Of a DNA stretch of 64,000 nt, positions 2,648 through 44,772 are shown piece after piece. The DNA is from Eledone cirrhosa. Its lineage: Eukaryota. The number at the start of each line of letters is the position of its first letter. The stretch's first letter is position 1. The stretch covers positions 350,858,001-350,922,000 of the forward strand of contig OZ024740.1 in NCBI GenBank assembly GCA_964016885.1. The letters are read 5' to 3'. Made by a program: the position numbers and the translations under genes. The notes beneath the pieces were generated by a model. It worked only from the letters and a program-made list of their open reading frames with translations, was not told the DNA's origin and searched no databases.

Positions 2648-2678
<31 letters not shown>

Positions 2679-2940
2679 TTTCTTTTTATTTGCCACCAGG
2701 GCATCAAAAGGTGGAACAAGTACAATGGGGGAGTTTACATAACAAGGCGTCCTCAATATGGAGGAGGCAATAACAAAATATAAAAATAAAATAAAATATA
2801 ACAAAATAAAATTTATAACAAAATCCTCAATAGAGAGGAGGCGCCTTGGAGGGTCGCACACACCCCCGAAAAAAAGTGTGCAACCCTTCTCCTCAGGAGC
2901 ACAGAGAGGGGGTCCTCCCTTGGTCTTTCATCTTCCTCAC

Positions 2941-5900
2941 CTATAGTCTGATGTAGAGTGAAGGCCCATTCACACGGGCCATTCTCGCCACTTTCACCCA
3001 TCTTTCATAAAAACGGCTGGGGTGCAGCACCTCTCTCTCCATCCTGATCCTTCTTCCGAAATGATATCGGAAGAAACGGACCAGTTGTTGGCCAGAGAGA
3101 AAGGTGTCTGACCTCAGTCCTTTCAGACGCGTCCACCATACAACCTCTTTCGCCATGGCTATTACGCACAGAAACACCGCCTCTCCATCGTTTTTGAAGA
3201 GGGGAGGCGGCTTGATCGTTACAATAGACTCGGTGGTTAACCGGATCGGTTCCACCCTTGACAGCAGTTGTTCGACATAGCCCCACAGATCGGCAATGCC
3301 CGAGAAGTGTACCAATGCCTGTGCAACGGTTTCCTCGTCACACACGCATCTGGGACAGATCTTTTTCGAAGGGTCCCTACCCGGGCGCCCGTGTCTGTAG
3401 AGCCTTTCTCGAAAGGGCAGAGCCCTTCTGTAGCACTGCCAGGACAGGGACCTCTGGAAGTTATCCATGTGTCCCGGGCTGAATGTCCTACCGAACAGGT
3501 TGGCCAGCTCGTCTTCCTCCATGCCTAGGGCTTCTCCAAGGGTGTCGTCGCACCTGCTAACCACCAGCCCTCTATAGAATGACGAGGTGGATTCTCCACT
3601 GATAGCCGGGTCCGCCTGCCAGAGAGCCGTGAGCGCCTAGGCACACTCGGTGTGCCAGGCGCCCAGTTTTCTCGGTCTTTGCTTGACCCAGGATTGCAGC
3701 TCGGTGAGTGAGACGAGTCTGGGAAAGGCTCGCCTCACAAACGGGGCCCACACCGGTTCACCGGTGAGGAATACCTGGAGGTGCCGTAGCCTTAATGCGT
3801 GTTTACGTATCATTAGCCACGGCATTCCCAGCCCTCCTTTCGAAGGGTGTTGACAGCAGATGGATCTCCTCACCATAGGAGCCCGCTTCTTCCAAAGGAA
3901 TTGGAAGAGTGCGCGCTCCATTTTGGCGAGTGTTTCCCTTGGGCAAGGCACAACGGTCAGGCGGTAGTAGATGACGGACGCTATATAAGTGTTCGTCACC
4001 TCCGCCCGACCTTTCAGGGACAGTTTGCACTCGGCCCACTTCTGGGTTAGTGCAAACACTCTGTTCGCTACCTCACCCCAGTCCTTCTCCACTTGGAGAT
4101 CTGGTCCGAACCAGACCCCGAGCAACTTCACCGGGCCCTCCGTCCAGCGCCCGACGACGCCATCGGAGGGAATCGATCTGCCCCTCCACGTGCCGAGTTG
4201 CAGACCGATCGACTTGTCCCGGTTCAGCTTAGCCCCTGTAAACCTTTCGTACTCTTCCAGTAAGGTGCCGATCGCCCCAATTTCCGAGGCCGTCGACACC
4301 ATTACTGTTACGTCGTCGGCATAGGCCGACACCGCTTTCCGCAATCCTGGTTCCAACGGGATGCCCTGCAACAACTCCAACTTCCGCAGCAGTGGCTCTA
4401 GAGTCATTACATACAGAAGGGAGGAGAGAGGGTACCCTTGTCGGATGGACCGCGCGATTTCGAACGGCTCCGAGAGGTAGCCGTTCACCTTGACCCTAGA
4501 GCAGATGCGGCTGCTGTGCATGGCATTGATCCAGCCCCTGAAAACGGGTCCGAAGCCTGCCGCCTCTAGCACCGCATCCAGGTAACCATGGTTGATCAGG
4601 GCCCCACCAAAGCTGGGTTCGTTCCCAACCCTCTCTATGATATATCGCATGAGGTGGAGGTTGTCGTGGATGGACCTGGACGGGATAGCACATGTCTACG
4701 CATCTCCCACCAGGTTGCCCACGACAAGCGCCAACCTTTTGCTAGCACCTTGGCCAAAATCTGTTACTCTGTATTTAGCAGAGTTATGGGCCTGAAATTA
4801 TTTATATCGTCCCCGTTGTTCTTGTCCTTCCTCACTAGCGTGACTACGCCCTTGGTCACATCACAGGGAATTCTCCCGTTCTGTTGCCAGTAGCAGTAGA
4901 CCGCCTCGAGGAGATCGGGGAACAAGTCCGGCATAGCTAGATATAGTTCGTATGGAAGACCAACGTGACCCGGGGATTTGCGTTTGCCGCATTGGCTCAG
5001 CACGTCCTCTATCTCAGCGGCTGAAATCGGCTCTTCGCAGGACTTCGCCTCCCTGTCCGAGAGACGCGGCAGGCCGTCGAGGTATGGACCGAAGTCCACT
5101 TCCCCAACCGGCTCCCCGCCCCTTCCGAACAATCTGGCAAAGTGCTTTTGAAAAGCCTCGCATATCTGCTTAGGTTCAAGGATCACCCGTCCATCCTGGT
5201 CTCGCAAAGACCGGATAGTGGATCTACTCCCTCTTTTGGCTTCTGTCACGCGGGCCCAGCTAACAGCTTTGGTCCCCTCGTTTCCCAGAGCACCTATTTT
5301 GCTTCGGACGATGCAGCCTTCGTGTTTCGCGTCGAAGAACTGGCCCAGGGCCGTTCTCGACGCTAGAACTCTTGCCACGTCGCCGCTTCTAATTGCCTCT
5401 TCTACACTATCTACCAACTCCCTTTCCTTCCTATTTCTATTTGAAGCTAACTCCTTACTAAATTCTATAGAGACTACTCTAATCTCTCTTTTGAGAGATC
5501 CCCACCACCTGCTGTTGACGATGGTGCCCGTCAACCGCTCCTTAACTAAAGTGCTAATCCGGTCCCTGTAAGCCTTACATGCCGGTAAGGACAAGTTGAG
5601 CTTCCAGTAACCGGGTCCCTGTCTATACGTTCTGTCAAGGTTGACCATGCAGGTCACTAACTTGTGGTCTGAATAGCCAACCATGCGCATTTTTGGACAA
5701 CTTAAAACGTCCTTATCCTTAATTCTAACTAAGAACCTATCTAGGTACGACCTAGATGATCCGCTACGATTTTCCCAAGTCCAGGTTGGCGCAGTCGGAA
5801 AATCTAGTCGATATCTATCGGCCAGGTCAAATCGACCGATTAACCCTTTGAGGCTATTACACCCCTCTCTATCGGGACAGGCCCCTACGTAGTCCCAGCG

Positions 5901-6344
5901 TGCATCTAGGATACCATTCCAGTCCCCCACTAATAGCAAGGAGCGGGACGTCCCTCGAAAAGTCTCCAGACGATAGAAGTAGTCCGGCCGCATTGACCCG
6001 AAAGGGCCGTAGGCGGCTACCAACCTAAACGCTCCGCCTTCACCACTGCCAAGGTCCAGAACCACTAGTCGACCCTCCGGGTTCAAATGTACCATCTGTG
6101 TTGCGAGACCCAGATGTTTTTGCAGCAGAAAGACAACCCCACCCCCACCTCCGGGCTGACAGAGAGATGCGTGCATCTCAAAGTCATCAAAGGTGGGGGC
6201 CAGCTGTCGCACGTTGCTGATCTGGGCTTCGCAAATAACCATCACATCTATACGTTGTGACCTGAGGTCATTTAGAAGCAATGCTTGCTTCCAAGTTGAG
6301 CCCAGGCCACGCGCATTTAAACAGCCTACTCTTAGCATTGCCAT
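2941..6344 (-). pseudogene. Tx1 ORF2 (AP endonuclease + reverse transcriptase + C-terminal Cys motif), disrupted
   Basis: Motifs LNARGL, GDWN, LDRFL, YSDH, KSPG..GLPYE, FRPITLLN, RQGYPLS, YADD, CPRC..ETV. Broken by stops at 4764 and 3637, a frameshift, and loss of LDQSKAFDRVD relative to copy 2. Confidence 0.92.
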
Positions 6345-6368
6345 GTTGGTGGTGAAGAGAAAAGGCAC

Positions 6369-8136
6369 TTACCTCTCTGCGTCCCGGGAATCGGGCTGCT
6401 CAATTTCCATGAGGGTGGGGGATGGGTTGTTGGGTGGTGGTTTGTGGAAGTGTAGGGGCATCGTGTGTTGTGTGGTTGGGGTGTTTGGAGTTGTGTAGGT
6501 GTTTGGGGAGGGGGTGGGGTAGTTTTTTAGGAGGACGCGGTTAATGGGCCCGTCGCAGGGGGGACCCACGTCCTCTTTAAAGTTGTTTTTTAAAGTTTTA
6601 TAAGTGTCCTGTGGGGCCTTAATCATTTTGAGGTGGGGGAAATCCCCTGCCTGGGTGAAGTTAGGCCCTTGGGTTTTTATTAAATTGTTGTTGTACACAA
6701 TGTTTAACAGTTTTTTGTTTCTTGTGTTTATGTATGTGTATGCATGTTTTTGTTTTTGTGTGGTGTTTTTTGTTTGCTGTTGTTGTGAGCTCTTTTTTGT
6801 TGGTGTCAGTGTTATGTTTTGGGAAGGGGTTGTTTTTGTTTGTGGGTCTGAAGTGTGTTTTCTTTTTTTTCTTTTGATTGTGTGGAAGTGCTCCTCCTCG
6901 TCTGACGACGAACTAGGGTCATCTTCCGCGTTGGAGGGGAGGGGTATATTTTCGGGTTGTGTTTGCGGTGCGGGTGTTTTGGAAATTGTTTTTTTTGAGT
7001 GGGGGGGATGGGTTGGACATTGTTTTGTTTTGGTTTGAGCTGTGGTTGTTATTTTTGTAGTGGTAGTTGTGGTGATTGTGTTGGTTGTGCAGTTGTTGGT
7101 GGTGTAGGCAGGATTGGGGTTTTCTTATTAAGTTGAGGACAGACAGCCCTCAGGTGACCACTGGTCCCACAGAGGTAACACGAGGGCCGCCTACCCTCAA
7201 CGGTAATGTTGATGAAAGTTTGATTATCCAGTATGACGCATTCAGGGATCTGGGTGATCCTTTCGGGCCTCATTTGAACTACATGTTCGCGGCTCGTTCC
7301 ACTGAAAACGTCACCCGATGCCTTTCCCATGGACACCAGCGTGTCATCATCCAGGTTCAGGAAACCTGTCAAAACCCACCATATGTCCATAATCGGCAGG
7401 ATGGTGTGGATTTTTAATTTTTTTGTCCATCTACCCATGTACGTAGGGTAGAAGGTGTATGCGGTGGATGTGATTGGTTTGATGGACAGTTTCACTGCTG
7501 TGTCCCTGTCCTTCATGAGAATGGATAGATTCCCGTAGAGTCTATCCTTCTGAATGAAGGTGATGTACTTCATGACGTCTTTTAAAACCAGCTCTATCTC
7601 ACTCTGTGATGGTTGAGCTGGTTTTTTGCTTTTATTTGAGATTGTCCTAAACATGACAGTGTTTAGGAGTCTCTGGCTTTTTAGTTCCGGGGGGGGGGGG
7701 ATCGTGAATGCACCATTTTCCCCGTACACTATATATTTTTCGCTTTGGTTATATCTACTGGCAGATAGTCGAGGATTTTCCTTGCCGTCTGTGCGAAGGA
7801 GACCTTTTCCTTGTTTGTGTTGCTGTTGTAGTTGGTGGTGTTGTTGTTATCATTGTTGTTGTTATCACAGTTATTGGTCTTGTTGTTGTTGTTATTGTTA
7901 TTGGCGTTGTTTTCGTCCGTAGTATTGTTGTTGTTGTTGTTGTTGTTGTTGCTGGTGCCGCTGGTTCTTTGGTTTGTTGTCATGGCAACGTCAAGTTGTT
8001 GGTCAGCAGGTGGAGAAAATCCTTCTTCTGGCTGACCTTTCTTTTTGACCTCTGCTACTGTGACAGTGGCAGGGGGAAGCTGTAAGCATATCTTCCCCTT
8101 TCCTCCTTCGAATTTTGGTGAAGAAGCTTCAGCCAT
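6369..8136 (-). pseudogene. Tx1 ORF1 (gag-like, zinc knuckle), frameshifted
   Basis: ORF pieces 7729-8136, 7049-7729 (CYLCGTSGHLRAVC) and 6369-6698; Asn/Pro/Thr-rich low-complexity tracts; ends ...SRDAER*. Confidence 0.85.
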
Positions 8137-8344
8137 TTTACAAAAAATGTTAACTTTTCAAAAAAAACTTTTGTTAACTATTTCGCCTAAAGGCGTAGAA
8201 TATTTTGAGAGAGTGACCAGATCAAAGTTTGACCTGGCAGTCCCTCTACAAAATGGTACAAAAATTAATGTTTACAGTCAAGAATTTCTATAGAAATTTA
8301 AGCAAAACTTACTCAGCAAGTTACACGCGTGTGTCCATCCCAGA

Positions 8345-8359
8345 GATAGATAGATAGAC

Positions 8360-8420
<61 letters not shown>
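8345..8420. repeat. (GATA)n microsatellite separating the tandem Tx1 copies
   Basis: Direct inspection. Confidence 0.95.
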
Positions 8421-8676
8421 TGTTTCTTTTATTTGCCACCAGGGCATCAAAAGTGGGACAAGTACAAAGGGGGGGGGGAGTTTACACAAAAAGGTGTCCT
8501 CAATAAGGAGGAGGCAATAACAATATATAAAAATAAAATAAAATATAACAAAAAATAAAATTTATAACAAAATCCTCAATAGAGAGGGGGTCGCACACAC
8601 CCCCGAAAAAAGTGTGCAACCCTTTTCCTCAGGAGCACAGAGAGGGGGTGCTCCCTCGTTCCTTCCTCTTTTCCAC

Positions 8677-11600
8677 CTACAGGCTTATGTGAAGAGAAGG
8701 CCCATTCACACGGGCCATTCTCGCCACTTTCACCCACCTTTCATAAAAACGACTGGGGTGGAGCACCTCTCTCTCCATCCTGATCCTTCTTCCGAAATGA
8801 TATCGGAAGAAACGGACCAGTTGTTGGCCAGAGAGAAAGGTGCCTGACCTCAGTCCTTTCAGACGCGTCCACCATACAACTTCTTTCACCATGGCTATTA
8901 CGCACAGAAACACCGCCTCTCCTTCATCTTTGAAGGGGGGAGGCGGCTTGATCATTACAATAGACTTGGTAGTCAACCGGATCGGTCCCACCCTTGACAG
9001 CAGTTGGTCGACATAGCCCCACAGATCGGCTACGCCCGAGCAGTGTACCAATGCGTGTGCAACGGTTTCCTCGTCGCACACGCATCTGGGACAGATCTTT
9101 TTGGCGGGGTCCCTACCCGGGCGCCCGTGTCTGTAGAGCTTTTCTCGGACGGGTAGAGCCCCTCGGTAGCACTGCCAGGCCAGGGACTTCTGGAAGTTGT
9201 CCATAGGTCCCGGGCTGAATGTCCTACCGAACAGGCTGGCCAGTTCGTCCTCCTCCATGTCTAGGGCTTCTCCAAGGGCGTCGTCGCACCTGCTGCGTAC
9301 CAGCCCTCTATAGAATGTTGCGGTGGAGTCTCCACTGATAACCGGATCCGCCTGCCAGAGGGCGGTGAGCGCCTGGGCACACTCAGTGTGCCAGGCACCC
9401 AGTTTTCTCGGTCTTTGCTTGACCCAGGATTGCAGCTCGGTGAGTGAGACGAGTCTGGGAAAGGTTCGTCTCACAAACGAGGCCCACACCGGTTGCCCGG
9501 TGAGGAATACGTAGAGGTGCCGTAGCCTTAATGCGTGTTTACGCATCATTAGCCACGGCATCCCCAGCCCTCCTTTCGAAGGGTGTTGACAGCAGATGGA
9601 TCTCCTCACCATAGGCGCCTGCCTCTTCCAAAGGAAGAGCGCGCGCTCCATCTTGGTGAGGGTTTCCCTTGGGCAGGGCACTACGGTCAGGCGGTAGTAG
9701 ACCTTTCAGGGATAGTTTGCAACTGGCCCACTTCTGGGTCAGTGCAAACACCCTGTTCGTAACCTCCGCCCAGTTCTTCTCCACCTGGAGGTCCGGTCCG
9801 AACCAGACCCCGAGCAACTTCACCGGGCCCTCCGTCCAGCGTCCGACGACGCCATCGGAGGGCATCGGTCTGCCCCTCCACGTGCGGAGTTGCAAACCGA
9901 TCGACTTGTCCCGGTTCAGCTTAGTCCCTGTGAACCTTTCTTACTCCTCCAGTAAGGTGCCGACCGCCTCGATTTCGGAGGCCGTCGACACCATTACTGC
10001 CACGTCATCGGCGTAGGCCGACACCGCTTTCCGCAATCCCGGTTCCAAAGGGATGCCCTACAACAACTCCAACTTCCGCAGTAGTGGCTCGAGAGTCAAT
10101 ACATACAGAAGGGAGGAGAGAGGGCACCCTTGTCGGATGGACCGCGCGATTTTGAACGGCTCCAAGAGGTAGCCGTTCACCTTGACCCTAGAGCAGATGC
10201 GGCTGCTGTGCATAGCAGTGATCCAGCTCCTGAAAACGAGTCCGAAGCCTGCCGCCGCCAGCACCGCATCCAGGTAACCATGGTCGACCCTATCGAACGC
10301 CTTAGATTGATCCAAGTTGATCAGAGCCCCACCAAAGCCGGGTTCGTTCCCAACCCTCTCTATGATGTATCGCATGAGGTGGAGGTTGTCATGGATGGAC
10401 CTGGACGGGATAGCGCATGTCTGCGCATCTCCCACCAGGTTGCCCACGACAAGCGCCAACCTCTTTGCTAGCACCTTGGCCAAAATCTGTAACTCTGTAT
10501 TTAGCAGAGTTATGGGCCTGAAGTTACTTATTTCGTCCCCCTTGTTCTCGTCCTTCCTCACTAGCGTGACTACGCCCTTGGTCACAGTACAGGGAATTCT
10601 CCCGTTCTGTTGCCAGTTGCAGTAGACCACCTCGAGGAGATCGGGGAACAAGTCCGGCATAGCTAGATATAATTCGTAAGGAAGACCATCGAGACCCGGT
10701 GATTTGCGTTTGCCGCATTGGCCCAGCACGTCCTCTATCTCAGCGGCCGAAATCGGCTCCTCGCAGGACTTCGCCTCCCTGTCCGAGAGATGCGGCAGGC
10801 CGTCGAGGTATGGACCGAAGTCCACATTCCCAACCGGCTCCCCGCCCCTCCCGAACAGTCGGGCAAAGTGCCTTTGAAAGGCCTCACACATCTGCTTAGG
10901 CTCAAGAATCGCCCGTCCATCCAAGTCTCGCAAAGACCGGATGGTGGATTTAGTTCCACTGTTGGGCTCTGTTACGCGGGCCCAGCTAACAGCTTTGGTC
11001 CCCTCGTTCCCTAGAGCACGTATTTTACTTTGGACAACGCAGCCTTCATGCTTCGCGTCGAAAAACTGGCTCAAAGCCGTTCTCGACGCTAGCACTCTGG
11101 CCACGTCGCCGCTTCTAATTGCCTCTTCTACTTTATCTATTAGCTCCCTTTCCTTCCTATTCCTATCCGCAGCTAGAACCTTACTAAATTCTATCGAGAC
11201 TACTCTAATCTCTCTCTTTAGAGATACCCACCACCTGCTGTTGACGATGGCTCCAGTCAACCGTTCCTTAACTAACGTACTAATCCGATCCCTGTAGGCT
11301 CTACTTGCCGGCAAGGACAAGTTGAGCTTCCAGTAACCGGGGCCCTGTCTATGCGTTCTATCAAGGTTGACCATGCAGGTCACCAACTTGTGGTCTGAGT
11401 AGCCAACCATGAGCATTTCTGGACAACTTAAAAAGTCCCTGTCCTTATTTCTAACTAAAAATCTATCTAGGTACGACCTAGATGATCCGCTGCGATTTGA
11501 CCAAGACCAGGTTGGCACCGTCGGAAAATCTAGTCGAAATCTATCGGCCAGGTCAAATCGGCCGAGTAACCCCTTGAGGCTGTTGCACCCCTCTCTATCG

Positions 11601-12070
11601 GGACATGCCCCTGCATAGTCCCAACGTGCATCCATGATACCATTCCAATCCCCCACTAAGAGCAGGGAACGGGACGTCCCTAGAAAAGACTCCAGGCGCT
11701 GGAAAAAGTCGGGCCGCTCTGTCCCAAAAGGGGCATATGCGGCTACCAGCCTAAAGGCTCTACCTTCACCACTGCCAAGGTCCAGCACCACCAGTCGACC
11801 CCCTGGGTCCAAGTGAACTATCTGTGTTGCAAGGCCCATATGTTTTTGCAGCTGAACGACAACCCCACCCCCACCTCCGGGCTGACAGAGAGATGCGTGC
11901 ATCTCAAAGTCGTCAAAGGTGGGGGCTAGCTGTCGCATGCTGCTGATCCGGGCCTCGCAGATAACCATCACATTTATAGATTGTGACCTGAGGTCATTTA
12001 GAAGCATTGCTTGCTTCCAAGACGAGCCCAGGCCACGCGCATTTAGACACCCTACTCTTAGCACAGCCAT
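8677..12070 (-). pseudogene. Tx1 ORF2 (APE + RT), disrupted
   Basis: 678-aa open stretch with APE motifs, LDQSKAFDRV and RQGCPLS; nonsense codon at 10058; deletion/frameshift near 9700; C-terminal CPRC...HALVHC. Confidence 0.92.
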
Positions 12071-12094
12071 GTTGGTGGCAAGGAGAAAAGGCAC

Positions 12095-13616
12095 TTACCT
12101 CTCTGCGTCCCGGGAAACGGGCCGCTCAATTTCCATGCTGGTTGGGGATGGGTTGTTGGGTGGGGTGGTGGTTTGTGGAAGTGAAGGGGCATCGGTGTGT
12201 TGTGGGGTTGGGGTGTTTGTGGTTGAGTGGGTGTCTGGGTGGGGTGGTGGGTGAAATTTTTTAGGAGGACTCGGTTGATTGGTTTGGCGCAGGGGGGGGG
12301 GGGGGCCCACGTCCTCCGTGAAATTTATTTTCAGTGTTTTGTACAAGTGTATTGGGACTTTTATCATTTTTAAATGAGGTAGTCCCACAGCAGTTTTAAA
12401 GTTAGGCCCTTCGGTTTGGACCGAAGGGTTTGCTGAAATTGTTTTCCGTAATTCTTTGTTGTCTGTGTTCATGTATGTATATTGTAAGGTCTTTTTTTGT
12501 GTAGCAGATAGTGTTGTGTGACAGGGAGGGGTGGTTTGTGTGTAGTTTGTGTTCTCTTGGGGGGGGGGGGGGGGGTTAAAGTTAACATGTGTGTCTGTGG
12601 TGCGTCTCCTCTTCTTTCTTTTTACTTGTTGGAAGGGATCTTTTTCGTCTTGCGACGAAAGGGGTTCGTCTTCCTTGTTGGGTGGGAGGGGTATGTTTTC
12701 TGGTAGTGTTTGCGGTGTGTGTGTTTTTGTATTTGTTTTGGGTGGGGAGGGATTGGGTGGGACGGTATTCTGTGTTATTTTTTCACGTGTTTGTTGTTGT
12801 TGTTGTTGTTGTTGTGGTGGTGGTGGTGGTGGTGGGGTTGTTGGTTTTTGTTGTTGTTGTTGTTGTGGTTGTTTTTGTTGTTGTTGTTGGGGCGAGTTGG
12901 TGTTGGTAGCAGTGTTTTTTTCTGTGTGAGCTGGGGACAGGCAGCCCTCAGGTGACCTCTATTGCCACAGAGGTAACAGGAGGGACGCCTACCCTCCACA
13001 ATAATGTTGAGGTGGGTACGGTCATCCAGCATGACGCGCTCAGGGATTTGGGCGATGCGTTCTGGCCTTATTTGGGTCAGAACTTCGATGCTCGTTCCAC
13101 CGAACGCGTCGCCGGATGCCTTCCCTATTGAAATGAGGTTGTCCTCGTCTAAATTGAGGAAGCCGGTTAGTAACCACCAGTAGTTTATGTTTGGGGTGAT
13201 GGTGGTTATCCATATCCTCTGGGTTTTTTTACCCATGTAGGTGGGGAAGAAGGTGTAGTGTGTGGACCGAATTGGCGACACAGAGTATTTTTTCGCCGCC
13301 AATTCGTCTTTCATCAATATGGATAAACTCCCATAGAGTTTATCCTTTTGTATAAAAGTGATGTCTCTCATCGCATCTTTCAAGACTAACTGAATTTCGG
13401 CTTGAGATGGTTGCGCTGGTTTTTTTGTTTTATTTAAAATTGTTCGGAATACGACAGTTCGTAATTCCGTCTGTTTTTTTAGTTCTGGAGGTGAATGTAT
13501 AGAAAACGAACCGTTTTCGCCAAAAGATACATATTTATTGGCTTTTTCCAGCATTTCTTTTGCTTTTGAAATATCTTCAAGCACATACGCGACTGATAAT
13601 TTAGCCGTTTGTGCAA
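12095..13616 (-). pseudogene. Tx1 ORF1 (5'-truncated, frameshifted)
   Basis: CYLCGNRGHLRAAC knuckle; homologous to copy 1 ORF1; ends ...SRDAER*. Confidence 0.85.
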
Positions 13617-21517: not shown

Positions 21518-24500
21518 CCTTGAATCTCAGTCATTGATGTTGGTTAACTGGAAAGTCCGTTGGATTGAATATCAAGCCACTACCTGCAGCCTCAGATATT
21601 CAGGACGTATCGGAGGGTTCTTGCTGTTCCAAGCAAGCATGCCTTTTGAAGCGTTCCAAAAAGCGTGAAGGGGCCGATTTTCTTTAACCATCCTTGGAAA
21701 CTTTTGGAGATAGTCCCCAGTGCGCCTATGACAATCGGGATCACTTTGACTTCATGGCAGTTCCAAATCCTTTTCACCTCCCACTTTAGGTCCTGGTATC
21801 GGTTAATTTTCTCCCTCTCCTTCTCTTGCACTCTCGTGTCGAACGGGCAGGCCACATCCACAATCAGGCACGATCTTTTTTCTTTGTCCACAACCACCAG
21901 GTCAGGTCTATTGTGTTCCAGTTTTTTGTCCGTCTGTATCCTAAAATCCCACAGCACCTTCACCTGATTGTTCTCCATCACCGCCTCTGGCCTATGCTCA
22001 TACCATTTCTCAGAATGTGGTAGATTGTTTACTTTGCACAGGTGCCAGTGGATCACCCTGCCCATCACATCGTGTCTCCAGCCCTTATAGTGGGTCTGGG
22101 CTAGGTGTTTACACTCGGACACAATGTGAGCCACAGTCTCCTCTCTCTCTCCACAGATCCTGCACAGTGGGCTGGCCTCCTCCTTGTAGATATGGTGCTT
22201 CAACCACTTCGTTTTGAGGGCCTGCTCCTGCGCAGCCATTAGCATTCCTTCTGTAGCCTTTTTGAGGTCTCCTCTTCTCAACCAGTTCCATGTCTGTGGA
22301 TCTCTAAATTCAGTTTTCTCAAAGAAGGTACTATGAAGGGTTTTTCCCTTAAGGCTGCTCTTCCTCCTTGATGTTATTTCCTCCCTGGACATCCCCTGGC
22401 CTACTGTCCCCTCCTTCAGTACAGCTCTGAGCATTGGCTCCTTACTATAGGTCACGTATTTGTATAGGTTGTTTTTCTCCATCTGAACACAGTCCTCTAT
22501 GCTGATAAGACCTCTTCCACCCTCAGATCTCCTTAGGTAGAGTCTATCGACATCACTCCTCTTGTGGAACATGTTGTAGATAGTCAATAGCTTCCTAGTC
22601 TTCCTATCCATTTCTTTCTGTTCAGCAACATTCCATCTCAGAATTCCCGCACTGTACCTAATAATAGACACAGCTCGGGAATTTACTGCGCTTATGGCAT
22701 TTTTGCTGTTCAGATGTGACTTCAATACGCTCCTTACTCTCCGAATGTATTCAGTTCTTAACAATTCCTTAAATTTTTTGTTCTTTATGCCATCAGCCTC
22801 CAGAACGCCCAAATACTTGTATCCTTCCTCAGAGTCAATTTCCTTTATCATCTCACCTGTTGGTATCTGGATCCCGTTACTTCTGCTCAACCTACCCCTC
22901 TTCATCACAATGACTCCACATTTACCAATACCAAACTGCATACATATATCACTGCTGAAAATACGGACAGTGTCAACAAGCACATCCAACTCCTTCTCAC
23001 TTTTCCCGAAGAGCTTAAGATCGTCCATGAAGAGGAGGTGATTGATGGTAAGCTCTCCCCTTCCCAACTTGTATCCTGCTCACACTTTTCGCAGCATAAT
23101 GGTCAAGGGCATCAGGGCAAGGACAAACAACAGAGGGGACAGGCTATCTCCCTGGAAGATACCTCTCTTGATCTTCACGCTTCCCAAGGATACTCCAGTT
23201 GATGTCAACTCTGTCTCCCAGGACCCCATACTCCTGCCTAGCAACTGTCTGATGTTATCCGCCACCCTGAAGATCTCCAGGCTTTTGGTGATCCAGGAAT
23301 GAGGCACCATGTCAAATGCCTTTCTGTAGTCTATCCATCCCATGGCAAGATCAGTGTGTCTCCTCCTGCAATTCCCCATTACCATCTTATCAATAAGCAA
23401 CTGGTCCTTTGTACCACGTGACTTCTTTCGGCATCCTTTCTGTTCGTCCGGTAACAAGTTGTTTGTGTGGAGATGATGGTAGATTTCCTCAGACACAATG
23501 CTCGTCAACAGTTTCCACATTACGGGCAGACATGTGATAGGTCTATAGTTGGTAGCATCATTACCCTTGATTCGGTCTTTCATTATCAGAACTGTGGTAC
23601 CTTTTGTCAACCACTCTGGCACCTCACCCGACACCAAGCAGTCATTGAACATGGCCGTCAGCTTCGGGTGGAGGGATGTTAGATGTTTAATCCAATACCC
23701 CTGCACACCATCTGGGCCTGGCGATTTCCAGTTGGTTAGTTTTTTGGCTTGTCCCTTAAGAGTTTCAACTGTGATACTCAAATCAGTCTGTTGCTGTGCC
23801 TGCTCACCGATCTCCCTCTGTACTGTCTCAATCCACCCTGCCTGGGCATTGTGTCTAACATCCTGCTCCCATATTCCTCTCCAGAATGTTTTAGTTTGCT
23901 CCGCCCCAGGGATCAAGTCGTTGCCTCTTTCTTTGCCCTCAAGCTGTCCAAACACCATCTTCTGGTTGTTGTCGAACATGCGGTTCTGTTTATACTGACT
24001 GACTCTGTTCTCGTATCGCCTTATTTTTGCACTCTTTGCTACAATGCGTTGCTTCAATTCCTCTATGATAATATTTAGCTTTTTACTCCTAGTTTTGTAT
24101 TTTATTTCCAGTCTATTTTTAGTGCCTATGTTTTTTAGTGTCCCAATCAGTAGTGACTCAAGCTTTCCTATGTCATTTCTCATTTCCCCGATTTGCCCAC
24201 TCAGTCGCTTCTTCCACCACGGCTCTGCTCTTTCTTGTCTGTTGTTTCCTCTCGCTTTTATACCAAGTAGTTTCCTCACCGTATTTGCTGTTGCTCTGAG
24301 GATATTGTTGCACTGGTGAAGGCTCCTCGCCTCAAGGTATGGGATGACTTTGTTTACCTTAGCTGTTGTTTCTTTTAACTTTATCCTGTCTACAAATCTT
24401 AGGTTCATAGGTCTCCCACTATCATTGTTCAATTCATCTACCACTAAATTTAGGATGTCAACCGAATCTTGTCCTAGCCCGTCAGCATTCATCTCCTCAG

Positions 24501-26050
24501 TGGCCGTATCTCTGTTCCAGGTATTATTTATCTCAGTACTCAGATCATTGTCTGCTTCGGGTGGTTCCTCCGTTCTCAGGACCTCCTCACCTTCATTTCC
24601 CACCGGCTCGCTTGTCTGGCATACTACACCCGCCATCTCCAAGCCATTCTCTCTGCTCAGTTCCTCCAGTTCCAGCTCGCTTATCCACCCATTAGTTCTT
24701 ATTACCCGAGCCTGCCCGGCCAATTTTTGTTCATCTAATTTAAATAAACCAATCTCGTTCCAGATGTTATGCATCCGTCTCCTGTAGCCCCTCTTCTTGG
24801 GGTTACTTTTCAGGTAGCATTGCATAACAGTTCTATTCAATTCTTTCGTCCAGTTGGTTCTGGCCCCTTTCCTTCTTCTCCTTCCTCCAACATCAGCAGT
24901 ATTTGGTTGACAGTCAGGTTCCTGCTGCTGAGCCAGGGGGCACCTGTTGGGTGAGAGTCTGTCACATGACGTTCTAGTCTCCATTTCACCGTTATTCGAA
25001 CTGTTTATGTTCGATATTTAAACACTCTTATCGAGGATTGGCGAATGTATGTTTACATAGCCATCTGTGGGTCCGCCATCCCACTTGGCCCTTGTGTGGC
25101 ATTATCACCACGCTGTATACGAACACACATAAACAACCAAACACACAGGCAGAAAGGGCCCCAGAAATGAATAAGCATAAGTTTCATTGTAATGTAGTGT
25201 TCGAATGTCTGACTTAGTTTTAGTTTTTTAAGTTTTACTTTTTCCCCCCTCTTCTCTGTCCGTCCGCCTGCTTCTCTCTTCATTCTTATTTTCTTTACGT
25301 TTTTGGGGTTTCTTTTTTTTTGTTTTTGTTTTTCTCTGTTTGTTTTTCTCGTTTTTTGCTGTTGTTGCTGTGCTGCTTTGGTTTTGTTGTTTGTTTTTTC
25401 TTTTTTCTTTTGGGTCTATCTATATATTTTGATGCCTTCCTCTTTGTTAGTAGTAGGAATTCTATAATGTGGGAGTAGCAGCCAGCAGGGAAGTGGGAGA
25501 CTGGCGGCGTTAGCGATACTGAGACAGTGGTGGTGGTGATGTCGATACCGAGGCAGTGGTGGCGGTGATGTGACCGTATTACTGTAGTGATGGTGCTGTA
25601 GCGGAGTCAAGGGGTGGTGGCGGCGGTGATGGGATAGTGGTGGTAATGATGGCCGTAGTGAGCGGTGGCGGTGAAGGTGAAAATGTGTCGTTATCTGGCT
25701 GTTGTGTTTAGTGTACACATATGATGGGGTGGGTGGTGTATCTAGTTTCTGGTGTTGGTGAGTTTAGCTGTCCTATATAGTGTAGCCAGAGGAGAGGAGG
25801 GGAGGGGTTCTTCTTCCATTTATAGCCATTTTTTTTTTGGATATACAGTGTACAATAAAAAGTTGAATATTTGAATATTTGAGCCTTATAACAATATATT
25901 TTGGGTCCGAATTTTTTGGGGCTCAAGCCGGGTGCTTTACGTAGCATTTGTGCTAAGAGTTTTTATTTCACAAATGGTTTAAATATGTTAAAAATTCAAA
26001 ACTTACGGGAGCGATTTCATGACCTCCGTCACCTCGTGCGTCTTCTTCCC
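21518..26050 (-). mobile_element. R4/Dong-like RLE non-LTR retrotransposon, family A copy 1 (longest 5' region)
   Basis: Single RT-RLE ORF with a ~1.07-kb 5' region; (TAA)n on both sides. Confidence 0.9.
21592..24984 (-). pseudogene. RT + CCHC + restriction-like endonuclease ORF (1130 codons, one in-frame TGA at 23080)
   Basis: KSPGPDG, YRPITCL, DYRKAFD, GIFQGDSLSP, FMDD, CRIC...H..SEC, RHD, RPDLVVVD...DVACP..K..Y. AGA>TGA relative to copy 2. Confidence 0.93.
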
Positions 26051-26053
26051 TTA

Positions 26054-26100
<47 letters not shown>

Positions 26101-26110
26101 GTTATTGTTA

Positions 26111-29100
26111 TTCCTTGAATCTCAGTCATTGATGTTGGTTAACTGGAAAGTCCGTTGGATTGAATATCAAGCCACTACCTGCAGCCTCAGATATTCAGGA
26201 CGTATCGGAGGGTTCTTGCTGTTCCAAGCAAGCATGCCTTTTGAAGCGTTCCAAAAAGCGTGAAGGGGCCGATTTTCTTTAACCATCCCTGGAAACCTTT
26301 GGAGATAGTCCCCAGTGCGCCTATGACAATCGGGATCACTTTGACTTCATGGCAGTTCCAAAAACATTTCACCTCCCACTTTAGGTCCTGGTATCGGTTA
26401 ATTTTCTCCCTCTCCTTCTCTTACACTCTCGTGTCGAACGGGCAGGCCACATCCACAATCAGGCACGATCTTTTTTCTTTGTCCACAACCACCAGGTCAG
26501 GTCTATTGTGTTCCAGTTTTTTGTCCGTCTGTATCCTAAAATCCCACAGCACCTTCACCTGACTGTTCTCCATCACCGCCTCTGGCCTATGCTCATACCA
26601 TTTCTCAGAATGTGGTAGATTGTTTACTTTGCACAGGTGCCAGTGGATCACCCTGCCCATCACATCGTGTCTCCAGCCCTTATAGTGGGTCTGGGCTAGG
26701 TGTTTACACTCGGACACAATGTGAGCCACTGTCTCCTCTCTCTCTCCACAGATCCTGCACAGTGGGCTAGCCTCCTCCTTGTAGATATGGTGCTTCAACC
26801 ACTTCGTTTTGAGGGCCTGCTCCTGCGCAGCCATTAGCATTCCTTCTGTAGCCTTTTTGAGGTCTCCTCTTCTCAACCAGTTCCATGTCTGTGGATCTCT
26901 AAATTCAGTTTTCTCAAAGAAGGTACTATGAAGGGATTTTCCCTTAAGGCTGCTCTTCCTCCTTGATGTTATTTCCTCCTTGGACATCCCCTGGCCTACT
27001 GTCCCCTCCTTCAGTACAGTTCTGAGCATTGGCTCCTTACTATAGGTCACGTATTTGTATAGGTTGTTTTTCTCCATCTGAACACAGTCCTCTATGCTGA
27101 TAAGACCTCTTCCACCCTCAGATCTCCTTAGGTAGAGTCTATCGACATCACTCCTCTTGTGGAACACGTTGTAGATAGTCAATAGCTTCCTAGTCTTCCT
27201 ATCCATTTCTTTTTGTTCAGCAACATTCCATCTCAGAATTCCCGCACTGTACCTAATAATAGACACAGCTCGGGAATTTACTGCGCTTATGGCATTTCTG
27301 CTGTTCAGATGTGACTTCAATACGCTCCTTACTCTCCGAATGTATTCAGTTTTTAACAATTCCTTCATTTTTTTGTTCTTTATGCCATCAGCCTCCAGAA
27401 CGCCCAAATACTTGTATCCTTCCTCAGAGTCAATTTCCTTTATCATCTCACCTGTTGGTATCTGGATCCCGTTACTTCTGCTCAACCTACCCCTCTTCAT
27501 CACAATGACTCCACATTTACCAATACCAAACTGCATACATATATCACTGCTGAAAATACGGACAGTGTCAACAAGCACATCCAACTCCTTCTCACTTTTC
27601 CCGAAGAGCTTAAGATCGTCCATGAAGAGGAGGTGATTGATGGTAAGCTCTCCCCTTCCCAACTTGTATCCTGCTCTCACTTTTCGCAGCATAATGGTCA
27701 AGGGCATCAGGACAAGGACAAACAACAGAGGGGACAGGCTATCTCCCTGGAAGATACCTCTCTTGATCTTCACGCTTCCCAAGGATACTCCAGTTGATGT
27801 CAACTCTGTCTCCCAGGACCCCATACTCCTGCCCAGCAACTGTCTGATGTTATCTGCCACCCTGAAGACCTCCAGGCTTTTGGTGATCCAGGAATGAGGC
27901 ACCATGTCAAATGCCTTTCTGTAGTCTATCCATCCCATGGCAAGATCAGTGTGTCTCCTCCTGCAATTCCCCATTACCATCTTATCAATAAGCAACTGGT
28001 CCTTTGTACCACGTGACTTCTTTCGGCATCCTTTCTGTTCGTCCGGTAACAAGTTGTTTGTGTGGAGGTGATGGTAGATTTCCTCAGACACAATGCTCGT
28101 CAACAGTTTCCACATTACGGGCAGACATGTGATAGGTCTATAGTTGGTAACATCATTACCCTTGATTCGGTCTTTCATTATCAGAACTGTGGTACCTTCT
28201 GTCAACCACTCTGGCACCTCACCCGACACCAAGCAGTCATTGAACATGGCCGTCAGCTTCGGGTGGAGGGATGTTAAATGTTTAATCCAATACCCCTGCA
28301 CACTATCTGGGCCTGGTGATTTCCAGTTGGTTAGTTTTTTGGCTTGCCCCTTAAGAGTTTCAACTGTGATACTCAAATCAGTCTGTTGTTGTGCCTTCTC
28401 ACCGATCTCCCTCTGTACTGTCTCAATCCACCCTGCCTGGGCATTGTGTCTAACATCCTGCTCCCATATTCCTCTCCAGAATGTTTTAGCTTGTTCCGCC
28501 CCAGGGATCAAGTCGTTGCCTCTTTCTTTCCCCTCAAGCTGTCCAAACAGCATCTTCTGGTTGTTGTCGAACATGCGGTTCTGTTTATACTGACTGACTC
28601 TGTTCTCGTATCGCCTGATTTTGGCACTCTTTGCTACAATGCGTTGCTTCAATTCCTCTATGATAATATTTAGCTTTTTACTCCTAGTTTTGTATTTTAT
28701 TTCCAGTCTATTTTTAGTGCCTATGTTTTTTAGTGTCCCATTCAGTAGTGACTCAAGCTTTCCTATGTCATTTCTCATTTCCCCGATTTGCCCACTCAGT
28801 CGCTTCTTCCACCACGGCTCTGCTCTTTCTTGTCTGTTGTTTCCTCTCGCTTCTATACCAAGTAGTTTCCTCACCGTATTTGCTGTTGCTTTGAGGATAT
28901 TGTTGCACTGGTGAAGACTCCTCGCCTCAAGGTATGGGATGACTTTGTTTACCTTAGCTGTTGTTTCTTTTAACTTTTTCCTGTCTACAAATCTTAGGTT
29001 CATAGGTCTCCCACTATCATTGTTCAATTCATCTACCACTAGATTTAGGATGTCAACCGAATCTTGTCCTAGCCCGTCAGCATTCATCTCCTCAGTGGCC

Positions 29101-30296
29101 GTATCTCTGTTCCAGGTATTATTTATCTCAGTATTCAGATCATTGTCTGCTTCGGGTGGTTCCTCCGTTCTCAGGACCTCCTCACCTTCATTTCCCACCG
29201 GCTCGCTTGTCTGGCATACTACACCCGCCATCTCCAAGCCATTCTCTCTGCTCAGTTCCTCCAGTTCCAGCTCGCTTATCCACCCATTAGTTCTTATTAC
29301 CCGAGCCTGCCCGGCCAATTTTTGTTCATCTAATTTAAATAAACCAATCTCGTTCCAGATGTTATGCATCCGTCTCCTGTAGCCCCTCTCCTTGGGGTTA
29401 CTTTTCAGGTAGCATTGCATAACAGTTCTATTCAATTCTTTCGTCCAGTTGGTTCTGGCCCCTTTCCTTCTTCTTCTTCCTCCAACATCAGCAGTATTTG
29501 GTTGACAGTCAGGTTCCTGCTGCTGAGCCAGGGGGCACCTGTTGGGTGAGAGTCTGTCACATGACGTTCTAGTCTCCATTTCACCGTTATTCGAACTGTT
29601 TATGTTCGATATTTAAACACTCTTATCGAGGATTGGCGAATGTATGTTTACATAGCCATCTGTGGATCCGCCATCCCACTTGGCCCTTGTGTGGCATTAT
29701 CACCACGCTGTATAAGAACACACATAAACAAACAAACACACGGGCAGAGAGGGCCCCAAAAATGAATAAGCATAAGTTTCATTGTAATGTAGTATTCGAA
29801 TGTCTGACTTAGTTTTTGTTTTTTAAGTTTTACTTTTTCACCCCTCTTCTCTGTCCATCCGCCTGCTTCTCTCTTCATTCTTATTTTCTTTACGTTTTTG
29901 GGGTTTCTTTTTTTGTTTTTGTTTTTCTCTGTTTGTTTTTCTCGTTTTTTGCTGTTGTTGCTGTGCTGCTTTGGTTTTGTTGTTTGTTTTTTCTTTTTTC
30001 TTTTGAGTCTATCTATATATTTTGATGCCTTCCTCTTTGTTAGTAGCAGGGATTCTATAATGTGGAAGTAGTAGCAGCCAGCAGGGAGAAGTGGGAGAGG
30101 GCGGCGTTGGCGATACTGAGACAGTGGTGGTGGTGATGTCGATACCGAGGCAGTGGTGGCGGTGATGCGACCGTATTACTGTAGTGATGGTGCTGTAGCG
30201 GTGGCAGCAGCAGTGAAGGAGTCAAGGGGTGGTGGCGGCGGTGATGGGATAGTGGTGGTAATGATGGCCGTAGTGAGCGGTGGCGGTGAAGGTGAA
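26111..30296 (-). mobile_element. R4/Dong-like family A copy 2 (truncated in 5' region)
   Basis: Near-identical to copy 1 at an offset of 4595 bp; (TAA)n on both sides. Confidence 0.9.
26187..29579 (-). pseudogene. RT-RLE ORF (1130 codons, one in-frame TAA at 26421)
   Basis: Open for 1052 aa, then CAA>TAA inside the endonuclease domain; the frame continues to ...YVLNI*. Confidence 0.93.
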
Positions 30297-30313
30297 TATT
30301 ATTATTATTATTA

Positions 30314-33300
30314 TTTGCATTTATCTTGCTTTATGTTTATACGAGTTATCACCAAGTCACAACCAGTGACCTCAAGAGACAACAAGGTCCGCCATGTTCA
30401 AGAAAGAACACACATATTCACACATGCATCCTTAGTGTTTAGACTTGTGATGTACTTATATTGACAGGATCTTCCTTAGTATATGGGCAGTTCCCATTAG
30501 TACTATATTTTGTATTTCTCCTATACGCGGGTTTCCTGGGATTTGCGATAAGTAGTCGTTAGACCCCTTAGGTATCATTCCCAGAGCGCCTACAACCACT
30601 GGTATTGTTTTAGTTCTCAATTTCCACATTTTTCCAATTTCTATCTCCAGGTCCTTATACTTGCTCAATTTTTCAAATGTTTTTATAGATACATTCTTGT
30701 CTATTGGAACAGACATATCAATTAGCAGGCATACCCTCCTTTGAAAGTCCTTCAATATTATATCAGGTCTATTTGCATCTATTTTTCGGTCTGTTTGGAT
30801 GCTAAAGTTCCACAAGATTGAGATGTGATCTTTTTCAAGTATGGGAGGTGGTTGATGCTCCCACCAATTCTTTTGATGGGGCAGGTCAAAATGCTTGCAC
30901 ATTATCCAATGTATGTATTGTGCAGCTCTGTCATGCCTGTTTAGGTATTCGGTTGGAGCTATAGGACTGCACATTGAAATTATATGGTCAATGGTCTCTG
31001 GTTGTTTTTTGCATACACGGCATAATGGGCTGCACCCATTTTTTATTATGTTGGCTTGGTAATTTTTTGTTGGCAGACACTGATCTTGTGCGGATATAAT
31101 CAGTCCTTCAGTCTCCGATTTCAGTCCAGAGGATGCCAACCACTGATGGGTTAAAGTTTTGTCAACATCAGGATTGTTAGCTCGCTCTGGGTATTTTCCA
31201 TACAGAGGCTTTTCTTGCCATTTCTTAGCCAGTTTCTGTAGCAGTTCTTTCTTTGCAGTTACTTTTACCTGCTTTGCTTTTTCTGTGTTTTCCATTTCAG
31301 CAGTAAATGGGACTTCTGAAATTTGTAGTCCATTACTGTATCTTTGTGCATCTTTTGTAATGGAATATGATCTTTTGGTGCTTTCGTGTTTCAAAACGAG
31401 TTTGATCATCCAATCATGTGATTCCCTTAGATATGTGGATAATCCAATTGTTGCAGTTTTCAACGCAATGTCTAACTGGATTAACCCACGTCCTCCTTCT
31501 TTCCTAAGGAGATATATTCTATCTATGTCTGCCTTAGGGTGATGCATTCTGTGCATGGTTAAGAATTTTCGGATTTTTGTATCGAGCCTACGGATCTCTG
31601 TGCTTGACCAGTTGATGACATTGTAACTGTAGGTTACTACTGGTATGGCAAGCGTGTTTATGGCATCGATCCTATTCCTTGCATTCAATTCCGTTCTTAA
31701 GATTGCTCTGACTCTGCGGTAACATTCCTTCCTTATCCTTTTCCTCATTGTCGAGTGCTTGATTCCGTCTCCTTCACAAACACCTAGATATTTGTAAGTT
31801 TGTTCTTGATCAAGCTCTCTTATCACGTTCCCCCGATCAAGATTAATGTCTGAACTCTTCAGCAGCTTTCCTCTGGTGAACGTTGCTTTGGCGCATTTAT
31901 CCAGTCCAAACTCCATTTTAATGTCATCACTGAACTGCTTCACAGTGGATAATAGCCCTTGCAATTGTTCATCATTTTTTGCAAATAGTTTCAGGTCATC
32001 CATGTAGAACAGGTGATTAATGGTTTTGTCATAGACTCTATATCCATGTTTTGTTTCATTGAGCATTTTACTTAATGGTATAAGTGCGATGCAGAATAAA
32101 AGCGGTGATAAAGAGTCACCCTGAAAAATTCCACAATTAATGTTAACTTCTCCAGCTTCCAGTGATTTTGTTTCACTATTCAAAAGGAGTGTCGTTCTCC
32201 ATGTCCTCATACTGAATGACAAAAACCTCCTGATAACGGGGGATATTTTGAAAATCTCTAAACATTTTTCAATCCAACTGTGTGGCAAACTATCAAATGC
32301 TTTTTTATAATCTATCCAAGCAATCGATAGATTTTTGTGTCTATTATGACAATCTTCCAGTATCATTTTGTTAACCAGAAGCTGATCCTTACAGCCATAT
32401 GAGCCTCGTTTACACCCTTTCTGCTCAATGGGAAATAGGTCATTTGTTATCAGGTGGTCATATGTGTATTCAGTTAGGACTGATGTTAAAATTTTATACA
32501 TTGTGGTCAAGCAGGTTATCGGTCTGTAACTTTTGGGATTGTTTGTCTCATCATTCTTCGGTAGCAGGAATGTAATGCCGTTAACTAGCCATGATGGTAT
32601 CTTTTCTGGCTCCTTAACTATTTCATTGTAAAGTTGGGCTAACAGCTCATGAGACTCTGTGAAGGCATTTATCCAAAAGTTTTGTATTTTGTCTTTTCCT
32701 GGGGATTTCCATTTGCTGGTTTTTCTTAGAGCCAAGCGCAGCTGTTCAACTGTTATATTTTCCCATGTTTGTTCTTCAAGGTGAGCTGTTTCTTTCATTT
32801 GTCTGTCTATCCATGGGGCATGTATGTTATGAACTTTTTCTTCGGCCCAGATCTTTTCCCAGAATTCTTGCACTTCCTCCTTGGGTGGTATTGATTTAGC
32901 AGTTATTGTTGACTTACCAATTTTTCTGTAGAAGTTTCTTTGGTTGTTTTTGAACATATTATTGTCCTTATAGAATCTAGATCGTTTTTCAAAGCGCCTT
33001 ATACGAGCAGCTTTGGCCGACACTTTTTGCTTGATTGTTTCTATCAGCATGTCTATGTCACATGTTGATCTTATACTGTACTTTTTTTTCAATTTTCTAA
33101 GTTTAGTTTGTTTAACATGTTCACCTACTTTATAGTTTGTTAAAATTTCTATGTCAGATCGGAGAAGGTTTATTTGGCGATTGATGTTATCTTGCCAAGT
33201 AGATTTCTTGTGGGAATTCCTTTGTTTTTTCATCTTCACTCCACATAAGTGAGTGGTGACTTTAGCCGATGCATAATAGAGATGATTTAAGTCAGTAATG

Positions 33301-34217: not shown

Positions 34218-34242
34218 ATTATTATTATTATTATTATTATTA

Positions 34243-34908
34243 TTCCTTGAATCTCAGTCATTGATGTTAGTTAACTGGAAAGTCCGTTGGAATGAATATC
34301 AAGCCACTACCTGCAGCCTCATATATTCAGGACGTATCGGAGGGTTCTTGCTGTTCCCAGCAAGCATGCCTTTTGAAGCGTTCCAAAAAGCGTAAAGGGG
34401 CCGATTTTCTTTAACCATCCCTGGAAACTTTTGGAGATAGTCCCCAGTGCGCCCATGACAATCGGGATCACTTTGACTTCATGGCAGTTCCAAATCCTTT
34501 TTACCTCCCACTTTAAGTCCTGGTATCGGTTAATTTTCTCCCTCACCTTCTCTTGCACTCTCGTGTCGAATGGGCAGGCCACATCCACAATCAGACACGA
34601 TCTTTTTTCTTTGTCCAAAACTTATGCTCATACCATTTCTCAGAATGTGGTAAATTGTTTACTTTGCACAGGTGCCAGTGGATCACCCTGCCCATCACAT
34701 CCTGTCTCCAGCCCTTATAGTGGGTCTGGGCTAGGTGTTTACACTCGGATAAAATGTGAGCCACAGTATCCTCTCTCTCTCCACAGATCCTGCACAGTGG
34801 GCTAGCCTCCTCCTTGTAAATATGGTGTTTCAACCACTTCGTTTTGAGGGCCTGCTCCTGCGCAGCCATTAACATTCCTTCTGTAGCCTTTTTAAGGTCT
34901 CCTCCTCT
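34243..34908 (-). mobile_element. 5'-truncated Dong-like family A copy with internal deletion near 34620
   Basis: Matches the family A 3' end; (ATT)n flanks. Confidence 0.9.
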
Positions 34909-34928
34909 TATTATTATTATTATTACAG

Positions 34929-34947
34929 TTGCATTTATCTTGCTTTA
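34929..34947 (-). mobile_element. ~19-bp extreme 3' remnant of Dong-like family B
   Basis: ttgcatttatcttgcttta is identical to 30314-30332 and lies within (ATT)n. Confidence 0.65.
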
Positions 34948-34980
34948 TTATTATTATTATTATTATTATTGTTATTGTTA

Positions 34981-36533: not shown

Positions 36534-36600
<67 letters not shown>

Positions 36601-36601
<1 letters not shown>

Positions 36602-36790
36602 GATGGATTGGCAGTATAGGTAGAGGGTTGAAGGCCATGCTTTACAGCACAGTTACGTCCCTTTACGGACTGAGTTCAAATCCCGCCGAGGTTAACTTTG
36701 CTTTTCATCCTTACGGGGTCGATAAAATAAAGTACCAGTAATACACCGGGATAATTGCTGGCCTTGTGCCAAAAGTAGAAACAATTGTTA
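36601..36790 (+). mobile_element. Nin/Deu-core SINE with (ATT)n tail
   Basis: Matches the 44571 copy. Confidence 0.9.
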
Positions 36791-44550: not shown

Positions 44551-44570
44551 TCATTATTATTATTATTATC

Positions 44571-44772
44571 AGGGCGGTGGATTGGCAGTATCGGTAGAGG
44601 GTCGGACGCCATGCTTTCCAGCATAGTTACGTCCCTTTATGATCTGAGTTCAAATCCCGCCGAGGTTGACTTTGCCTTTCATCCTTACGGGGTCGATAAA
44701 ATAAAGTACCAGTAATGCACTGGGTACTTGCTGGCCTTGTGCCTAAAGTAGAAACAATTATTATTATTATTA

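Follow-up and report, generated by a model that had tools for sequence, protein, structure and literature searches.

We describe here a conserved splice-signal architecture in a clade of long interspersed nuclear elements (LINEs), followed up from a 64,000-nt stretch of the Eledone cirrhosa genome (assembly GCA_964016885.1, contig OZ024740.1, positions 350,858,001 to 350,922,000 of the forward strand; hereafter the window). The sequences compared show this architecture to be real: a 5' splice-donor motif stands at the end of the first open reading frame (ORF1) of a LINE in the window, named copy A, and is retained in every subfamily compared. The best reading of it, which we consider to have about an even chance of being right, is that this donor pairs with an acceptor at or past the stop codon of ORF2, so that ORF2 would be removed and an ORF1-only mRNA produced, and that the unspliced RNA would serve both for ORF2 translation and as the template. 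The purpose would presumably be an excess of ORF1 protein. The features of copy A are as follows (a slash marks a predicted splice junction; UTR, untranslated region).

2650-8345, minus strand: full-length LINE copy A, dead, between two (TATC)n tracts
8344-8420, minus strand: (TATC)n tract at the 5' junction of copy A, doubling as the 3' tail of copy B
6369-8136, minus strand: ORF1, about 595 aa in intact copies, with a weak zinc knuckle; frameshifted in copy A
6367-6375, minus strand: 5' splice-donor motif GAG/GTAAGT, the conserved element, overlapping the ORF1 stop TAA at 6371-6369
6345-6368, minus strand: inter-ORF spacer, 24 nt, pyrimidine-rich
2941-6344, minus strand: ORF2, with APE endonuclease, reverse transcriptase and C-terminal CCHC motif; ATG at 6344
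2948-2950, minus strand: competing CAG, in ORF2 phase 2
2941-2943, minus strand: ORF2 stop TAG, candidate 3' splice acceptor
2937-2939, minus strand: TGA with which a spliced ORF1 would terminate in family A; unconserved, the sister subfamilies having TGG
2691-2940, minus strand: 3' UTR, about 250 nt, the predicted second exon
2685-2690, minus strand: AATAAA polyadenylation signal
2648-2676, minus strand: (TATC)n tract at the 3' junction, the target microsatellite

The original prediction had read an intron spanning ORF2 from these letters, and the letters are as it described them. On the minus strand, ORF1 ends GCA GAG AG/G TAA GT, with the GT at 6372-6371, and ORF2 ends CTA TAG (2943-2941), followed by G (2940) and TGA (2939-2937), with which the 3' UTR opens before a purine-rich start gives way to hairpin-like repeats; the competing CAG flagged a few nucleotides upstream is present as well. 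The geometry of a donor at the ORF1 end with a possible acceptor at the ORF2 end proved to be a trait of the whole lineage, and it is supported by a donor kept regardless of phase and by intron signatures in the outgroups, but the stop placed after that acceptor is not conserved. Copy A itself is dead: its ORF2 is interrupted by stops near 4765, 4698 and 3638, shifts frame near 4737 and has a deletion near 4592.

Conservation of the donor motif

The GAG/GTAAGT of copy A matches the U1-pairing consensus at eight of nine positions, and GTAAGT is kept at 29 of 30 family A junctions among the best-matching copies; exact A-type donor sites number 1,432 genome-wide. From natural copies we defined 20 operational subfamilies (K1_L312 was left out of the subfamily table), and the motif is found in 20 of 20, including 14 of the 14 chosen from ORF2 sequence alone, where the background chance of such a motif is 1.5% per 25-nt interval. 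Among 40 unselected copies the donor is intact in 35, and the other five represent single-copy decay. The variants are all of ordinary donor types (GTAAGT, GTGAGT, GTAGGT and GTAATT). On a 17-copy tree, positions -1, +1, +2, +5 and +6 of the donor underwent no change, compared with a mean of 2.48 changes per fourfold-degenerate site (226 sites; F, Q and I, which have internal deletions, were set aside). Such invariance has a probability of 0.0045 when three sites are counted and of 0.00014 when seven are, in a comparison whose columns are anchored on the motif and whose positions +2 to +4 are the stop codon in phase-2 families.

The donor lies in reading phase 2 in 14 subfamilies, in phase 1 in five (C, C2, H, H2 and K1) and in phase 0 in N. 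Retention through three phases shows that it is not a by-product of arginine and stop codons. As in copia-like retrotransposons, what looks like a conserved 5' splice site is positioned at the end of the structural gene. In family N (L364-L367) the ORF2 ATG reads ATA in four of four copies and ORF1 extends 12 codons beyond the donor; this family either starts ORF2 at a non-AUG codon or is a non-autonomous subfamily. Two other subfamilies are recombinant, B2 (L199, L221) joining an A-type 5' part to a B-type 3' UTR, and K2 (L338 and L309) joining a diverged 5' part to a K1 3' part.

Splice signals in outgroup LINEs

The outgroups are eukaryotic LINEs that occur as contaminants in prokaryote assemblies (56 loci from the scan). 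Two of their families fall into a single clade together with the host families (SH-aLRT 100) in a quick, unfinished protein tree. In the first, which comes from another organism and has 41% ORF2 identity, ORF1 ends GAG TAA and is followed by G/GTAAGT in a non-coding spacer of 13 nt. This AAG/GTAAGT after the ORF1 stop is present in 78 of 78 retrieved spacers, representing 37 distinct contexts, and is the sole eight-of-nine donor match in the one element scanned. In the same family another donor-like site marks the end of ORF2, and 239-263 nt further on there is an acceptor that comes first or second among about 120 YAG sites in each of the 8 copies scored (L419 is outside this scoring) and whose tract varies in sequence but stays pyrimidine. 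That the acceptor AG is kept in 48 of 48 retrieved segments, overlapping loci included, indicates that the genomic copies are unspliced. In the second family, known from one copy (L390), the ORFs are coupled by TAATG, and the 3' UTR contains a 144-nt intron signature, CAG/GTAAGT...TTAG/G, whose acceptor ranks 1 of 120. The strongest splice signs of all are these canonical GT-AG signatures in 3' UTRs, at about 4500-4640 in L390 and about 8490-8735 in L398, both retained in genomic copies.

All 12 host families compared have 3' UTRs that score higher against the outgroup segment past the acceptor (z up to 5.4) than against the one before it (z no higher than 1.6), with z above 3 in four of the 12. 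This likeness suggests that the ORF2-terminal CTGTAG stands at the ancestral acceptor position. The candidate acceptor past the enzyme gene is strong in the outgroups and in families G and N, and weak or displaced in the others. We tentatively propose, at somewhat less than even confidence, that throughout a clade of animal Tx1-type LINEs ORF2 may behave as an intron subject to alternative splicing: one 3' acceptor would serve both the ORF1-end donor, giving an ORF1-only mRNA, and an ancestral donor at the ORF2 end, giving a 3'-UTR intron, and only unspliced RNA would be retrotransposed.

Two further outgroup LINEs, at L444 4422-4534 and L436 7238-7406, have RNA genes as neighbours, with a 5S rRNA gene adjoining and a U1 small nuclear RNA gene close by, and both have a seven-of-nine donor-like site before ORF2; their RNA-gene neighbourhood resembles that of RNA-gene-targeting Tx1 elements. 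In one bacterial metagenome-assembled genome of the species-representative collection (contigs CAXXMW01...; L390-L428, L431 and L441) many contigs are tandem arrays of eukaryotic LINEs, that is, host contamination, which other such genomes also show. The metagenome scan gave five distant loci, the one inspected being uninformative, and the viral scan gave no matches.

Evidence weighing against ORF2 skipping

Several results, concerning spliced copies, the acceptor and the stop codon past it, weigh against the removal of ORF2 by splicing. A spliced RNA, if retrotransposed, would resemble HAL1 (half-L1), an ORF1-only element. No ORF1-only copy with the predicted junction was found in the families tested (A-type, G, C and H). 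For the A-type, none of 27 deviant donor sites is a spliced retrocopy, against 1,432 unspliced sites, in a search that covered deviations other than those only at +4/+5; all 27 are point changes or small indels. The predicted junction is likewise absent from the one deviant site in G, the four in C and the 23 in H (D, J, K, M and N lay outside the search). Nor was the donor-acceptor joint among the 15 listed of 143 contig joints from three sequencing runs of unrecorded kind, or a loose end at the donor among the 18 listed of 50 from the same runs. One join, at G000:C6:66720659, fuses an H-type ORF1 end to apparent D-type ORF1 sequence and is probably a microhomology switch rather than splicing.

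The lack of spliced retrocopies weighs only moderately, because an RNA without ORF2 would need mobilisation in trans, and because BARE elements keep translated and packaged RNA apart (PMC3735527). In human L1, about 2% of inserts (131 of 6,609) are spliced, and those RNAs retain ORF2 (PMC5860796).

The acceptor itself would be the terminal TAG, the AG 7 nt upstream of it or a later AG in the 3' UTR, probably depending on the subfamily. Our acceptor score is a crude, home-made pyrimidine measure that hydrophobic C-termini and T-rich 3' UTRs inflate. On it the terminal TAG takes a rank between 1 and 7 in G, N, C, C2, H and M and between 8 and 40 in other subfamilies, and is weak (18-40) in A, A2, B, B2, J, H2 and I. 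In family A it ranks 38 of 110 YAG sites, which is due to the competing CAG upstream; were that CAG (2948-2950) used, ORF1 would finish as R-L-stop, with the TAG of ORF2 itself as the stop. Two AGs inside ORF2 equal the terminal TAG in conservation and pyrimidine richness. Moreover, the L390 family carries its 3' intron signature without any donor at the ORF1 end, and the likeness of the family A 3' UTR to the outgroup does not exceed that of shuffled sequences (z=-0.1). The D families have lost the terminal AG (in D1 and D2, ORF2 ends in TAA; the pattern for the D/H/I group counts 5,844 ORF2 starts). Together with their sister I they have a new acceptor-like TTTTTACACGCAG site, present at 11 of 11 ends and at 0 of 21 other clade-X ends, the acceptor-like ACACGCAG lying about 160 nt beyond the place of the ORF2-terminal CTGTAG; its gain, one evolutionary event, counts in favour of ORF2 skipping. 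Under ORF2 skipping, acceptor choice and the last few residues of ORF1 would drift among subfamilies.

A conserved stop directly past the junction, another mark of a copia-like arrangement, is absent. The original prediction had taken TGA in family A and TAA in a second family, at the same position, as independent signs of selection on a spliced product that would be the identical ORF1 protein. The families are not independent, since the trees show the donor to be common by descent. The TAA was produced by a 7-nt deletion in a single copy; family C otherwise reads CTG TAG G TAG GTAA, with its donor in phase 1. TAG-G-TGA does occur at 29 of 30 best-matching family A 3' ends, and exact family A ends number 2,770 genome-wide. 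However, among 34 copies that have the same donor and a linked 3' end (from 40 fetched of the first 100 donor-site matches; 7 of 41 matches without a linked 3' end were dropped), 20 read G-TGA and 14 read G-TGG, TAG-G-TGG ends number 1,213 genome-wide, and the 3' tree nests B together with A. A stop at +2 to +4 is not above chance (permutation p=0.15-0.22), and none follows TAG-G in B, B2, E, F, Q, I, J, K2 or M, which speaks against selection on it. The identity of the spliced protein is moot for copy A, given its frameshifted ORF1 and the internal stops of its ORF2.

An in-phase stop within two codons is present in 8 of 18 families versus 5.9 expected by phase permutation (p=0.15), and the corresponding figures are 7 versus 5.3 within one codon and 10 versus 6.9 within four (p=0.06); these are the families with a terminal AG (D1 and D2, which have none, were left out), and their relatedness is ignored. 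All five phase-1 families have such a stop within two codons, which looked compensatory, and predictions of a phase-matched stop were therefore set down in advance. Four of the five failed: J (5 of 5 copies phase 2), K2 (two copies, one linked), M (phase 2 in all of the 11 loci, out of 20, that extended as far as the donor) and N (phase 0 in 4 of 4); K1 (five copies) agreed. A rule matching the stop to donor phase, perfect in the first families, was thus rejected. Its rescue through an upstream AG is post hoc, and trivial because an AG that opens an AGN codon always falls in phase 2. Use of the terminal TAG would add 27-100 residues to ORF1 in B, B2, E, F, I, J, K2 and M. The exact stop should matter little, however, because the donor lies in the last codons of ORF1 and exon 1 would contain nearly all of it.

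Alternative roles for the donor

A different role for the donor, which we think unlikely though it survives best among the alternatives, would be to bind the U1 small nuclear ribonucleoprotein without productive splicing, and so to block premature polyadenylation or to control the export or translation of the bicistronic RNA. This would fit a donor that is much better conserved than any acceptor, as well as the failure to find spliced retrocopies, and a U1 anti-termination role has been shown for EVD (PMC5580714). It would also fit the donor-like motifs at both ORF ends of the outgroup and the AG/GTAGGT (seven of nine) at the end of family C; indeed, a GTRRG donor-like motif after ORF2 itself spells TGA, TAA or TAG at +2 to +4 and would account for the stop originally noticed there. 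However, the outgroups retain strong non-coding acceptors. Moreover, ORF2 contains no AATAAA or ATTAAA in 11 of 17 representatives, and in 8 of 17 the retrieved sequence upstream (up to 600 nt) contains none, so that there is often little to suppress.

That the motif is a vestige or by-product, in which an arginine codon plus TAA gives AGGTAA, stops arise from purine-rich sequence past the TAG, and the remainder is owed to common descent, strikes us as distinctly unlikely. It fully accounts for the stop past the TAG, phase-2 families vary at +3 and +4 only as a stop codon permits, and among 11 other outgroup loci a seven-of-nine donor precedes ORF2 in two and is lacking in nine. It leaves unexplained, however, the donor in phases 1 and 0, the invariant non-coding +5 G and +6 T, and the non-coding donor of the outgroup. 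Least probable of all is that the donor splices elsewhere, into an internal AG (ORF2 nt 415 or 2807) or across a very short intron into the fifth codon of ORF2, giving ORF1 fusions or truncated RNAs: each of the 17 representatives has both internal TAGs, preceded by a mean of 12 of 16 pyrimidines, but as the top of 75 conserved AG columns they are accounted for by their codons (LLLVGDWN and FYRG), phase-1 families would fuse in another frame than phase-2 families, an AAG acceptor makes a 42-nt intron unlikely, and the outgroup spacer has just 13 nt.

Relation to known systems

LINEs need far more ORF1 than ORF2 protein, which is thought to be achieved through inefficient translation of ORF2 from one unspliced RNA. 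If ORF2 skipping does take place, it would provide LINEs with a second route to this ratio, convergent with the gag strategy of copia, and the LINE would have to sort spliced mRNA from template RNA. In Drosophila copia, the shGAG of plant Ty1/copia elements (EVD) and BARE1, the donor likewise lies near the end of the structural gene, and a spliced subgenomic RNA encodes the structural protein while the unspliced RNA is the template, as proposed here (PMC5580714, PMC3735527). The intron of Drosophila copia gag RNA is about 3 kb, and in copia-type elements the donor matters more than the acceptor and also serves as a U1 anti-termination site (PMC5580714). Those elements, however, have long terminal repeats and a single ORF, need splicing to make Gag alone, and have had that splicing demonstrated, whereas the LINE is a non-LTR element whose ORF1 has its own stop and whose splicing is predicted from sequence.

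Human L1 is also an L1-type element with conserved splice sites (PMC5860796). There, however, the donors of the spliced integrated retrotransposed elements (SpIREs) lie in the 5' UTR and spliced genomic copies exist, whereas in the present LINE the donor stands where ORF1 ends and a search for such copies found none; L1 splicing is described as detrimental (PMC5860796). At the level of titles and abstract openings we found no account of such a splice architecture in a LINE, most subscription journals and Repbase reports being beyond reach.

Classification and abundance

ORF2 combines an APE endonuclease, a reverse transcriptase and a C-terminal CCHC motif, as in the L1/Tx1 group. An intact natural copy matched PF03372 and PF00078, with zf-RVT below the cut-off, and the nearest solved structure to ORF2 is that of human L1 ORF2p (E=2.5e-48, against 3e-19 for R2). 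ORF1 has 595-677 aa and a visible CX2CX4HX4C, which Pfam zf-CCHC matches weakly (E=0.05-0.26). Tracts of TATC or ATT follow the 3' ends of most copies viewed and TATC flanks copy A on both sides, as seen by eye and with no control count; in families C, D, H and I the tail is (ATT)n, not (TATC)n. With a preference for microsatellite targets, which is a Tx1-clade trait, the element is a microsatellite-targeting L1/Tx1-type LINE and a candidate member of the Tx1 clade proper, the protein tree bearing no named Tx1 reference as an anchor. Kibi and Koshi, microsatellite-targeting LINEs of the Tx1 clade, are alike in having two ORFs, an APE-RT-CCHC ORF2 (RT, reverse transcriptase) and insertion into simple repeats, but their repeat targets differ from the TATC seen here and the ATT of families C, D and H; the available part of that paper does not mention splice signals for them (PMC4494074). 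Thirteen recently active L1-Tx1 families have been described in an octopus genome, in a paper whose available part makes no mention of splicing (PMC13282606).

The closest named homolog is from Argonauta hians (67%). In the genome of 3.0 Gb, a protein search gave 55,197 first-look candidates. With splice sites maintained in the lineage, its copies, in the tens of thousands, may be a source of strong donors within the introns of the host.

Other elements in the window

Three further copies of this LINE group lie in the window.

8392-13545, minus strand: sister copy B, 83% identical to copy A, 5'-truncated
37748-40021, plus strand: family D fragment, donor AAG/GTAAGT at 38888
40860-44600, plus strand: family C copy, boundaries approximate, donor at 40874; presumably the second family of the original prediction, there called copy 4

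Copy B has the same donor, at 12098, but reads TAG-G-TGG at 8679-8673 with no stop, and is thus a counter-example to the conserved stop from within the window. The TAG-G-TAA of the family C copy, at 44276-44282, is the one made by the 7-nt deletion and the only such sequence among the copies of the window.

Four other non-LTR elements, with reverse transcriptase and C-terminal restriction-like endonuclease motifs (R4/Dong-like by eye), occupy 21592-36641 on the minus strand, and one of them has an open frame of 1216 aa at 30456-34106. Copies of the LINE described here are inserted in each other's (TATC)n tails, giving head-to-tail stacks both at 8344-8420 of the window and at many other loci.

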